Part shown: positions 11,184 through 62,494 of the stretch, piece after piece | How the letters are laid out: every line of letters begins with the position of its first letter | How positions within the stretch are numbered: position 1 is the stretch's first letter | NCBI GenBank assembly: GCA_964016885.1 | Contig: OZ024741.1 | Location: forward strand, 395,250,001 to 395,314,000 | Length of the DNA stretch: 64,000 nucleotides | Direction: 5' to 3' | DNA from: Eledone cirrhosa | Lineage: Eukaryota | Notes under the pieces: model-generated | Told to the model about the DNA's origin: nothing | Databases searched by the model: none | The model's input: only the letters and a program-made list of their open reading frames with translations | Made by a program: the position numbers and the translations under genes

Positions 11184-11390
11184 GTTTTTCGAAATATTCA
11201 CTTCTGCGTTCACAGATTGATTTTTTTAGTTTCAGAAGATCCCGTTAAGGGTGAAAGCAGCGATTCTTTGCTTAAACTTTAATCTGTTATTTTAATAAAT
11301 ATTTGCTCTAGGGTTCTTATATATTTGATATATATTTATCCTTATCGAGCCCTCTTTGGATTTTAGTCTTCAAATTTATTATTATTATTA
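11184..11390 (+). mobile_element. Second pLTR copy and unique 3' tail of PLE A
   Basis: 11184-11297 duplicates 5674-5786 and is followed by a tail with the GCTC...GAGC hairpin. Confidence 0.85.
11228..11278 (+). ncRNA. Type I hammerhead-like motif with CAGAAGA core variant
   Basis: agttt-CAGAAGA-t ccc gttaa ggg t-GAAA-gca gcgattctt tgc-TT-aaact. Confidence 0.7.
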
Positions 11391-11573
11391 CTATATATAT
11401 ACATAAAAGAAAAGTTTCGCTCTACATGGCTGAATACAATAAATGTAATCTGAAATTTTCGAATATTAATAATAAAATTCGGTTCGTTTGTAATGATGCA
11501 AACAAGCCTCAATTTTATAGCCATGTCAGTAGAATGAACCCTTCATTCTTGCGCTTGTGTTGGCATGTGAACA

Positions 11574-11623
11574 GAACTGCAGATACTAATGTTTCTGGGT
11601 ATCACCCTTCATCAGTACAGCTC
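11574..11623 (-). ncRNA. Type I hammerhead, slightly degenerate in stem III
   Basis: Minus strand reads gagctgta-CTGATGA-a gggt gat accc a-GAAAC attagt ATC-tgcagttc. Stem I is 8 bp with G-U pairs. Confidence 0.72.
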
Positions 11624-12149
11624 ACTGTTTTGTGAGACAAGGCGAAATGTTAAGATTTCGAAGGGAATAGATGACTTCGTAGAGACAGTTAGAGACAGTC
11701 ATACTGGCCAGCATGGGTAAAACAAGGGTAAAGAATAAATATGTGTTGTGAAGGCCAGCAAAATGATAAATACAACAATAATAACAATAATAGCGTAAGC
11801 AGAACATTTGCAATTGGGAAAGAGAGGGATACCTGGAAGATTTATATATGCATGGCTGAAACATGGTTTTAGCAGTTTGTTCTCGTGATTAATTTTAGCC
11901 TTTCAGAATCAAGTGTGTCTTATCTCGTGAAAACTTCAAGATGAGTGAGGGATGAATGGAAGAGAAAGGGAGGTAATAGGTAGGGGATAGGTGGCTTAGA
12001 GAGAGAGAGAGAGAGGGTAGCCATCATGGCCTATAGCATCTCAGGAGATTTGGGCGAAATAAACCGATACGAGTACCTATATTAGACAAGGCCTCCGACT
12101 AAATTGTCAGTGGATGAGTCACTGAAATTTTCAGAAAATTTATAAGGAA

Positions 12150-13670
12150 TTGTTTTTTATAACTATGAATGATAAAATTGAAGCGTTTCCCGCCATAAGT
12201 GGAAATGGGAGCGTTGAAATGAATATCACTATGACAACAGGGTGTGATTGAGAAAAATCACATGAAAACAAAAGCCTGGAAACACAAACGTCACAAAAAA
12301 TATTCAACAAGAAAAAAACAACTTCACAAATGAACTCCACAACCACAAATCAAGCAATTGAGAACAACAAAAACAACAGCAGCAACCATAAAAATCTTTT
12401 GCCACGATAAGCAAAGAAAGTTTTACAAATATTGATATTTCCAATGCGAAGGAAATGATCAATGAAGCAAAAAAAATATTACCTTCGAGGAAAAAAGGGG
12501 ATTTAAAATCACCTCTCCGCCATAAATCAAAGCCGACACAATGCGAAGGACTGTTTTTTTTCGCACGATTTCGAACAAACAAAAAAAAAAACGGCTTTCC
12601 TTACTCAATGCGAAATTGAAATCATCTTGAAAGAGGCAATGCCAGAAATACAATTCATACAAAGGGCTAAACTATATGGAAGCATTTCGGTGCTCTTCAA
12701 AAGTGAGGCCCTTGCAAAACAATACTCAGTGACCTTGGTCACCTCTGCCACACACACCTTTTTCCCTACATAACTGGGAAAAAGGACACAAAAAATAAAC
12801 ATTTCCAATATACCACCCAACATTAACATCTGGTGGATTCTGGCAGGGTTCTTGGAGGAGGATGAAGACAATACTGTTGATTCAAAAATCCACAAGAAAC
12901 ACCTGGAACGGCACAAGCTTGGAAATTTTGGTCCAAATGAAACCGAACAGAATTTCCAAGATACCAGAAAGGGTGCCAGTAGACAATACAAACTATATAC
13001 AGATTTCAGCAGGAGGGAGGCCACATTATTTTAAATGCGCAAGCACATCGCATTTAAAGGCCTCCTGTCCCCTCTTACGAACAAACACCAACCCTCCCCA
13101 AAAAGTACTTTTACCAACACCAACACCAAAACCACAACAACAACACACAAAACAAGCAAACACACAAAAACAAACAACTGCTCAACCTCAAACGACAGAA
13201 AAAACACAAACAATTCCCCTGAAAAACACAGTCCCACCCCATCCCACTCCAGCCAACACTACCACAATCACACCATCACCACACAACATACCCCTCCCAC
13301 ACGCCCCTGATGACGATTCATCGTCAGACGAGGCTACTTCTCCATCCCCAAGTAAAGATGAAGGAGAGCCTCAGAAAAAAAAAAGAGACACCGCAAAGCC
13401 ACAAAAACACCAATCACCAACATCAATACACAACCACCAACACAAACCCCCCCCCCCCCCAGCAAAACAAACACCAACACCACCCCAAACACAAATGCCC
13501 ACCATAAAAAGAAAACTACAACATGAACAACAAACCAAAACAACACAAAAAAAAACAATACACATACATTAACACAAACAATAAAAACCTAATGGAGGTC
13601 ATCTCCCAAGACCCTAAACTGACGTCGGTGAAAGAGACATAACTTGCTAAGGGAGGTAATTACTCGGTAT
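12150..13670 (+). mobile_element. Degraded LINE ORF1-like (gag-knuckle) element without ORF2
   Basis: Broken reading frame contains GGRPH[Y]FKCASTSHLKASCP, a degenerate CX2CX4HX4C, followed by a Pro/Thr/Gln-rich tail. Ends at (TA)n. Confidence 0.55.
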
Positions 13671-60630: not shown

Positions 60631-60712
60631 TATATATATATATATATATATATATATATATATATATATATATATATATATATATATATATATATATATA
60701 TGTATATACATA

Positions 60713-61009
60713 TGGTAAATATCATCTTGGTTAAGAGAGTGAGACTGACTTTGTGCAGTGCCTTTGCTCACTATAAAAGCTTCACGGCACAGGCATTGCT
60801 TTATATCTGGAGATCTCTCTGCACTTGTCGTCACATGGTACCATGGGCCCAGCACTATGTGTCAATAATTGTCACAAGTGTAGTGTTTGTACCAGAGTTT
60901 TCAAGTCGCTGGCTGGACTAAAAAGTCACACTCGTTCAGCGCATTGGTAGGGGTTCCCCTACATGGATATAAAGTAGTGGCCGTACTCGAAAACGAGTTG
61001 GCAGCCACC
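60713..61009 (-). repeat. Second copy of structured repeat X
   Basis: Reverse complement of 6985-7281. Confidence 0.85.
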
Positions 61010-62004
61010 ATATATATATATATATATGTGTGTATATATATATATATATATGTGTATATATATATATATATATATGTGTATATATATATATATGTGTATA
61101 TATATATATATGTATATATATATATATATGTGTGTGTATATATATATATATATATATATATGTATATATATATATATGTGTGTGTATATATATATATATA
61201 TATATATATATATATATATATATATATGTGTATATATATATATATATATATATATATATATGTGTGTATATATATATATATATGTGTGTATATATATATA
61301 TATATATATATATATATATATATATATATATGTGTATATATATATATATATGTATATATATATATATGTGTGTGTGTGTATATATATATATATATGTATA
61401 TATATATATATGTGTATATATATATATATATATATATATATATATATATATATATATATATATATATATATATATATTACTGTGAGAGCCCTGGTTTCTG
61501 TTGAGCTCTGCTGATGAATGAAATCCAACCGTGACCATCTCCACTGAAAGTTTTCATGAAATAGTCTTTTAAGACTATACAGAGCATTTGATGTTATTCC
61601 AAATTGAAGGATAAGTGTTTCAAACTTTATTTTATCATGAGTTAAAGGTCTATAGATTTTTCCCCGGATTTCACTAAATTCTGTGGATGAATTTATATCG
61701 TGATTCTCTTTTGAGATGAGTTTGAGTTATTTTTCCTAAATCTTTCGTTAACTACTTTTCCCATCTTGACGTTATATATATACACACACATATATATATA
61801 TATATATATATATATATATACACATATATATATATATATATGCACATATATATATATATATATATATATATATATATATATATATATGTGCATATATATA
61901 TATATATATATATATATATATGTGCATATATATATATATATATATATATATGTGTGTGTATATATAAATATATATATATATATATATATATATATATATA
62001 TATA

Positions 62005-62494
62005 CACAGAAATATCCACGGTTTATTGTGGGTCTAGTCTGCATGAAGAACTCAATGTAATCCATATGTTGAAAATGTAGGTTAAAATAAATCCCAGAAA
62101 ACAATAAAACATCAAAAGGAAAACAGAGTCATGATATAAGTTAAAACAATGAAATAAAAATTCAAGTCATTAGAAATATATTTCGCTGTTTTACGATCGT
62201 TTCTAGGTGATAATAATACATCGTACGCATATTTCGTTATCGATCTATATAAGGTTAGTTACAAAATATCAAATAAGGAATATATTTACCTACGTGTATA
62301 TCATCAGCCGTTATCAAAAGCAATGATGATATACACGTTGGTAAATATATTCCTTATTTGATATTTTGTAACTAACCTTACATAGATCGATAACGAAATA
62401 TGCGTACGATGTATTATTATCACCGAGAAACGATCGTAAAGCAGCGAAATATATTCCTAATGACTTGAATTTTTATTTCATTGTTTTAACTTAT
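62005..62494 (-). mobile_element. Fold-back PLE-like unit (~170-bp arms, 62135-62305 / 62324-62494) with tail
   Basis: Near-perfect inverted repeat; CTGATGA...GAAAC-GATC-GTA on the minus strand; tail ACTC..GAGT. Confidence 0.65.

Follow-up and report, generated by a model that had tools for sequence, protein, structure and literature searches.

The closest described systems belong to two clades of Penelope-like elements (PLEs), and what we say of published work refers to the sections of each source consulted. [quoted passage not shown] PLEs canonically have a tail, an optional extension of 30-40 bp (PMC3846280, PMC8557442), which the Hydra-clade study credits to endonuclease resolution, its consulted parts naming no motif downstream of the hammerhead. 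In PAc, a Poseidon-clade element of Anolis, two internal start sites bound the tail and RNA 3' of these sites is required; the target is AT-rich, a dimer is predicted, and the consulted parts report no binding motif identified by the authors (Frangieh et al., 2024, PMC11167929). We analyzed 64,000 nucleotides from Eledone cirrhosa (GCA_964016885.1, contig OZ024741.1, positions 395,250,001 to 395,314,000 of the forward strand; hereafter the window, numbered from its first letter) together with related loci, and describe a bulged hairpin that occurs twice between the hammerhead and the start codon of Hydra-clade elements, retrotransposons of aquatic animals, and predicts both positions at which their copies end. 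This clade-wide twin RNA motif is apparently undescribed, the element clade and the tail being already known; we found no description of it in the literature searched, with subscription papers and Repbase entries lying outside that search. The hairpin is likely an RNA signal with a putative bound protein, used twice, that positions the starts of the element's reverse transcriptase (RT) just upstream.

A sequence-only reading of the window had listed eight hairpins, all of which we recovered to within 1 nt: 11305-11350 (+), 14342-14366 (+), 14807-14789 (-), 22999-23023 (+), 39066-39086 (+), 43175-43198 (+), 62129-62050 (-) and 19124-19091 (-). All eight share one architecture, RCTC, inner stem, loop, stem, a T(T/C/A) bulge and GAGY, with the inner stem stacking directly on RCTC. 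Counting a ninth site at 18311-18370 (+), the 2-nt 3' bulge is TT in five, TA in three and TC in one, and the outer pair is A-T in six and G-C in three, which agrees with the covariation first reported for it; the proposed 3' side TNGAGYNCY keeps its NCY flank at eight of the nine sites, the exception being TAT at 19124. A strict pattern, derived from the same window sites that were then counted, occurs nine times on both strands of the window, whereas 30 shuffles averaged 1.5 occurrences (range 0-5), and a chance origin was rejected. Within 15 nt of 108,282 unmasked anchors, the strict pattern was met at 0.11% and the loose RCTC..GAGY at 1.4%. Rfam at E values up to 1 gave no match over any of the nine hairpins, its sub-threshold snoRNA-type and miRNA-type matches lying elsewhere, and its sole hammerhead match in the window is at 15832-15903.

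Seven of the nine hairpins lie 4-10 nt past the end of a duplicated arm: in the printed alignments of the units that we call U1 to U7, the partner copy stops 7, 7, 4, 9, 4, 9-10 and 4 nt before the hairpin and then gives way to (TA)n, matching the 3-10 nt that had been estimated. From GAGY to the end of the tail the distance is 36-57 nt in eight of the nine window units, irrespective of loop size, which is as expected with a second hairpin directly beyond the tail.

Such a second hairpin is seen in related loci. A profile search supplied 89 of them (handles beginning with L), 78 taken from the 80 best of 264 metagenome matches and a further 11 from genome bins, and a hammerhead scan of these loci gave 81 copies in 47 clusters, 35 of which contain a copy long enough to judge. 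The hairpin is present in 27 of these 35 clusters and twofold in 13; independently of the hammerhead, at least one hairpin lies in the 190 nt upstream of 27 of 31 distinct open reading frame (ORF) starts, with two in 16 and none in 4. The locus motif, GCTC…TTGAGCACT, with the consensus GCTCY..R TT GAGC ACT, occurs twice, about 64 nt apart, in the order hammerhead, hairpin 1, about 43 nt, hairpin 2, start codon. Hairpin 1 begins 23-60 nt past the hammerhead cut (values of 93 and 123 represent hairpin 2 behind a degenerate hairpin 1), its start is 57-70 nt from that of hairpin 2, a linker of 39-48 nt (SD 2.6) runs between GAGC and the following GCTC, and the start codon follows hairpin 2 by 16-43 nt in 13 of 13 clusters. 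A covariance model built from 50 locus hairpins matches the 89 loci 98 times, a count that includes its training sequences. Inspection by eye of the published Hydra consensus file (PMC8557442) shows the motif in three of six families, with two copies at the start of Hydra-1_Ajap and one each in the tails of Hydra-2_Ajap and Hydra-2_Amil; Hydra-1_Crog has variants of it, Hydra-1_Obim none that is clear, and Hydra-1_Amil ends before it. The loci L079-L089 are Hydra-clade animal retroelements on contigs binned as bacterial genomes, a placement most likely due to host contamination, and viral contigs yielded no relative.

Copies end before one or the other hairpin. In 48 loci the ORF is followed by a hammerhead. 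Of these, 12 stop in (TA)n ahead of any hairpin, 10 do so after hairpin 1, 6 pass through both hairpins, and 4 continue without the pattern; a further 10 show hairpin 1 and then either other DNA or the end of the contig, and the contig end truncates the remaining 6. TA onsets fall 30-59 or 79-117 nt past the cut in 33 of 35 cases, with none at 60-78 and the others at 139 and 151. In 20 of 23 same-family pairs, hand-picked and not all independent, a script placed the last shared base 2-10 nt before the next hairpin (median about 4), and this offset is alike for hairpin 1 and hairpin 2 (five pairs at hairpin 2); the three remaining offsets (-1, 13 and 14) are register artefacts that read by eye as 4, 4-5 and 6. 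Since copies thus stop in (TA)n, about 4 nt ahead of hairpin 1 (site 1) or of hairpin 2, the tail is the stretch between the two sites. Like the canonical PLE tail it is a one-sided extension past the duplicated pLTR arm, as seen in U2-U7, L071 and two units in L084, but its length is the spacing of two hairpins, and it exceeds the canonical 30-40 bp, measuring 61-127 nt for window units and about 55-70 nt for the loci. In each of those nine inverted units the two ends are of different types, and no unit has two tails. The idea that tailed copies had been split by a later TA insertion was rejected, as no remainder lies beyond the short arms.

Public reads for U6 place the ends of its family at the same two positions. 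Four runs from three studies, one of which may be the source of the window sequence, were mapped to 42900-43262; in one raw-read run the loose ends into (TA)n fall at 43160/43169 (858 + 2783 reads) and 43236/43255 (1067 + 9361 reads), and ends at 43169 and 43255 recur in each of the three contig sets. In one library tailed ends are about 3 times as frequent as short ends. The expected clustering of 3' ends just 5' of the hairpin was found in the window, in these reads and in the loci of other organisms. Within the U6 family, most copies are truncated inside the hammerhead, leaving stubs of about 140 nt, and 43105-43122 shows a steep rise in depth with many strand-switch joints.

At the end sites, positions -7 to -5 are A/T in 89-97% of cases before hairpin 1 and 75-81% before hairpin 2, so that short TA microhomology at the junctions leaves the first copied base ambiguous. 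Microhomology alone could bring ends near the hairpins if these were 5' untranslated region (UTR) elements for translation or packaging, as the closeness of hairpin 2 to the start codon in all 13 clusters and the several long copies that begin at a TA-like spot before a hairpin would allow. We regard this as very unlikely, since each end region holds 5-13 TAT/ATA spots of which the others are not used as ends, and since the offset is the same at both hairpins. In long copies the 5' end often comes immediately after a TA run that lies at hairpin 1 or 2 or just ahead of it (L028:2740-2766, L038:975-1054, L042:960-979, L054:650-718), which suggests that the same A/T patches also serve 5' junctions.

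The hairpin is conserved as a structure. All 65 distinct instances of GCTC..GAGCACTNT have U at bulge position 1, followed by U, C or A, although the search required neither the bulge U nor the inner pairs, and all 65 have a Watson-Crick Y-R pair below the bulge (C-G in 43, T-A in 22). Inner pairs 1-3 are formed in 52, 44 and 36 of 53 locus hairpins, above nearly all of 5,000 shuffles, and pair 4 is not above shuffles in the same set; a bulge of 2 nt leaves 132 of 159 cells paired as against 44-54 for other sizes. The pair count, with 97.4% paired and 45 double changes, was matched by none of 500 shuffles and exceeds all slid controls, and it is the inner stem that covaries. Because every one of the 53 locus hairpins has G-C as its outer pair, covariation of that pair rests on the window sites. 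A G-C pair and then an A-U pair follow the bulge in 51 of the 53 and in nine of nine window sites, a regularity partly built into the search pattern. Loop lengths differ greatly, sense-strand wobbles in the loci number seven G-U against two A-C, and the variants listed for U6 reads within the hairpin, 48 lesser ones aside, affect two loop bases and the second bulge base.

These structural features bear on whether the signal acts in RNA or in DNA. An endonuclease recognizing an inverted repeat or DNA hairpin might cut the adjoining TA-like spot and thereby resolve a longer cDNA, as has been proposed for the tail (PMC8557442); the spot before each hairpin is indeed A/T-rich with TA dinucleotides, like the target, and the D. 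virilis endonuclease required the tail for cleavage (as cited in PMC11167929). We nonetheless hold a DNA-level signal to be quite unlikely: half-site spacings of 8 to 72 nt are unlike a duplex-DNA site, the asymmetric bulge and covarying inner stem indicate a folded single strand, the wobble pairs favor the sense strand rather than first-strand cDNA, and by eye no hairpin remainder lies past the TA run of the short arms of U2-U7. An antisense RNA template has been proposed for PLEs (PMC3846280), and on such a template the hairpin would be a telomerase-like boundary that halts copying; PLE and telomerase RTs are sister groups. This reading appears extremely improbable here, because U6 copies have fixed 3' ends and variable 5' ends with read depth climbing steeply toward the 3' end, the same wobble pairs point to the sense strand, and sense RNA works in vitro (PMC11167929).

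The bulge resembles the arginine sandwich motif of HIV TAR and 7SK SL1, with its layout of A22, U23, G26, A27-U38 and G28 (Pham et al., 2018, PMC6189040). Shared with it are a paired purine, a bulged U, G-C and A-U pairs and a G at the third step, and a 2-nt bulge as in 7SK ASM3; unlike in TAR and 7SK, the bulge is on the 3' strand with the loop on the other side, and a conserved unpaired ACU follows. The likeness, as judged by comparison, is one of secondary structure only and would not imply homology.

The hairpin sits a few bases past both points at which copies end, and for this reason it probably tells the element's enzyme where to start copying. We propose that the motif would act in cis in the sense RNA of Hydra-clade PLEs. 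The RT-endonuclease would bind the hairpin, possibly through the arginine sandwich as a protein contact, and hold the A/U-rich patch 5-8 nt upstream against the nicked (TA)n target; copying would then begin about 4 nt ahead of the stem and leave the bound hairpin uncopied. A start at hairpin 1 would yield the short arm, and a start at hairpin 2 the arm with its tail, which therefore carries hairpin 1; the two kinds of end are observed. For inverted units, two protein subunits on one RNA may prime from both ends of the cut target, the weakest step of the scheme, and one site of each type per unit would be expected under such priming. More specifically, though here we are tentative and doubtful, two TAR-type arginine-sandwich hairpins might dock a dimeric RT-endonuclease on one RNA, with one cDNA primed per (TA)n end about 4 nt before each hairpin.

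The same genomic ends would be predicted if the hairpins instead caused the RNA to be cut a few bases upstream, whether by a host nuclease or by the element itself, with ordinary 3'-end priming to follow; RNase P is a known precedent for cutting 5' of a helix. Such cleavage, which we judge unlikely, could also explain the RNA-seq read ends seen at PAc start sites, but the ends described here lie 2-10 nt from the stem and are never flush with it, and the PLE tested in vitro initiates within RNA that is uncut and depends on sequence 3' of the start (PMC11167929). The two systems differ in other respects, PAc belonging to another clade: its sites lie inside the ORF, at an AC-rich stem-loop said to have no homology to the target (PMC11167929), whereas the Hydra-clade sites lie in the 5' UTR, are TA-like, and each have the same bulged hairpin after them. 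About 8 nt beyond its +111-118 site PAc does show, as judged by eye, a stem whose core is CUC/GAG, but this bulge is absent from it.

That a conserved signal sets an internal RT start had been put forward by the sequence-only reading, and the ends and the covariation fit it, an internal start having been demonstrated in vitro for a Poseidon-clade element only (PMC11167929); what that reading missed is the pairing of the hairpins, the tail end being the same type of site before hairpin 2. Its further proposal, a two-part system of hammerhead and hairpin, gained no support. Hammerhead mutants left PAc insertion unaffected in vitro (PMC11167929), and the U6 read ends listed include no 5' cluster at the hammerhead cleavage site, so that a role of the hammerhead in the priming system is unsupported. 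Both hairpins lie downstream of the hammerhead; a cut monomer would retain them at its 5' end and could be a full template only if circular or uncut.

Several observations weigh against the signal as we interpret it. Hairpin 2 is seen for no window family, nor among the U6 loose ends listed (417 lesser ones aside), and the U6 read counts, likewise given apart from those 417, come from a reduced-representation library. Eight of the 35 informative clusters are without the pattern, some of them probably other families, and units with both arms at site 1 are invisible to the search, the one such case in L084 being uninterpretable. The model built from outside loci ranks U5, U6 and U1 top, gives U3 and U8 E values of 1.5-1.8, and misses U2, U4 (+), U7 and U9. 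Locus counts are not independent because the loci are related, the 500-shuffle covariation test ignores that relatedness, the G-U excess is small, and L080 and L081 swap the third pair from A-U to U-A. By eye, the Anolis element has no copy of the motif. The hairpins are also weak alone, with folding z of -0.4 to -2.4, and in U3, U5, U6, U9 and L027 the minimum-energy fold differs from the bulged form. Such weak thermodynamics would suit a putative protein-stabilized site; a strong terminator-like hairpin was dropped as a candidate for the same reason.

The clade of the window units can be judged from two proteins. The U1 and U6 ORFs, 47% identical, both have YIGLT, a CxCx5C linker between RT and endonuclease, and a GIY-YIG domain at the C terminus without CCHH (its absence seen by eye), by which they are assigned to the Hydra-clade PLEs; for the CxxC and CxH motifs around conserved E and N, U6 has CNLC and YKH, and U1 CKH and a decayed CxxC. 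The linker is present in all 21 full-length locus proteins, as are the N-terminal RWK and DKT motifs (patterns RW[KR] and DK[TS]), the window ORFs being 5'-truncated. Pfam gave nothing on the Hydra ORFs, and the PDB no relative at E up to 1. No ORF remnant was detected by tblastn in U2-U5 or U7-U9, which appear to belong to the Hydra clade by motif, hammerhead remnant and target, a partly circular placement. The description of the units as unrelated stands for their DNA, in that the ends of 34 of 36 unit pairs are unalignable, scoring within the shuffle range (U4/U7 and U4/U8 exceed it), but not for their descent, since they appear from these features to form one clade. A PLE-wide motif was ruled out, as the motif is absent from a Neptune-type element (58913-60625) and from three more hammerhead-like units of the window. 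In the Naiad and Chlamys consensus files five exact 9-mers match only four times, seemingly in coding sequence, although line breaks can hide matches.

All units lie next to TA runs, in a window with many (TA)n runs, RTE-type LINEs and fold-back stubs. The core of the type I hammerhead expected in Hydra-clade pLTRs is intact in the left arm of U2 and in U3, near-intact in U8, and degenerate or half in U1, U4, U5 and U6, with no clear core in U7 and U9. Seven PLE units with a duplicated arm had been proposed, and this is borne out for U2-U7; U1 may be two insertions, its direct copies being 5.4 kb apart with nested insertions between. Hairpin 1 of U1 (11305-11350, +; GCTC..TC GAGC) lies 30 nt past a degenerate hammerhead cut, has an outside-model E of 0.029, and is followed by a tail ending at (TA)n near 11391 (+). 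Its partner, a Hydra-type pLTR end at 5678-5786 (+), is a 96% direct repeat of 11188-11291 that stops before hairpin 1 and abuts (TA)n, and its broken, 5'-truncated ORF (3769-4839, +) encodes the RT-thumb, CxCx5C linker and GIY-YIG regions of a Hydra-clade protein. U2 is a fold-back unit (14150-14420, +) whose left arm, with its hammerhead at 14244-14190 (-), ends at site 1 and whose right arm has the hairpin at 14342-14366 and the tail. In the inverted unit U3 (14746-17932, -) the left arm contains the hairpin at 14807-14789 and a hammerhead at about 14873-14835, and the right arm (17363-17932, -) ends at site 1. U4 (22782-23075, +), a fold-back unit with half a hammerhead, has its hairpin at 22999-23023 with a 6-bp inner stem, then a tail; 23019-23059 (-) also reads as a consensus-like minus-strand hairpin (model E 0.1), perhaps from the near self-complementarity of GAGCACTC. 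The fold-back unit U5 (38925-39122, +; hairpin 39066-39086, tail) is the top match of the outside model (E 2e-05), and a separate short copy of its family at 51640-51676 (-) ends at most 3 nt from the U5 arm end, at (TA)n. The inverted unit U6 (39500-43246, +), with arms 99.5% alike, contains an ORF remnant at 40920-41942 (+), site 1 at about 43165-43169 (+), the hairpin at 43175-43198 (model E 1.4e-04) and a tail end at about 43246. U7 is a fold-back unit (62007-62488, -) with a long-loop hairpin at 62129-62050 and a tail to about 62007. The U8 hairpin (19091-19124, -) lies 52 nt past a near-canonical hammerhead cut, its partner arm absent from the window. The U9 motif (18311-18370, +), the site missing from the earlier list, has no partner arm, folds poorly alone, and is an outlier with 78 nt from GAGT to (TA)n.

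Other elements share the window. The Neptune-type PLE remnant (58913-60625, +) is frameshifted and has a Cx4CxxC-like linker, CCHH and an intact hammerhead near 60430 followed by an AACC-rich stretch. A TA-flanked family with a hammerhead (61511-61579) is present at 61478-61775 (+) and 7410-7552 (-); one copy stops at 61772 and the other extends about 70 nt more to (TA)n, and with a similar tail length but no RCTC/GAGY motif it is probably another clade with its own signal. Nested in U3, 15562-16143 (-) is a retrozyme-like unit in which two identical 116-nt direct repeats 466 nt apart surround a hammerhead at 15903-15832 (sub-threshold Rfam HH9). Another unit (16153-16660, +) has a 211-nt palindrome and then a hammerhead with a perfect 7-bp stem I (about 16413-16500), its 3' part ending at (TA)n without the motif. 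At 12000-13667 (+) and 10136-10880 lies an element in which a Gag-like zinc-knuckle ORF remnant accompanies a hammerhead-like core near 13610; it has a short end motif in common with the fold-back 10695-10852. A 180-nt SINE-like family (6107-6288, 13905-14084, 18617-18966, 43847-44027, 51060-51469) always lies in TA runs, as tandem pairs at two places, and window positions 1-2374 are a tandem array of about 90 copies of a 25/27-nt unit.

Our findings address two open questions, namely how an internal start is chosen by the RTs of PLEs, which are the sister group of telomerase, and where the one-sided tail comes from. One in vitro study located starts, not the signal, in the sections consulted (PMC11167929), and a motif that predicts both ends makes the question directly testable. 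The motif also provides a protein-free marker for Hydra-clade stubs and their true boundaries, the twin hairpins show why there are two different places at which consensus sequences stop, and RT-based insertion tools could gain from it a start signal that is transferable. Should the bulge be an arginine sandwich, a transposon would join the motif described for retroviral TAR and 7SK (PMC6189040). If our proposal is correct, twin docking alone would yield an inverted unit with a one-sided tail whose length is the hairpin spacing, and the twin hairpins would constitute a portable internal start signal, one that would work also on a circular template without a 3' end.

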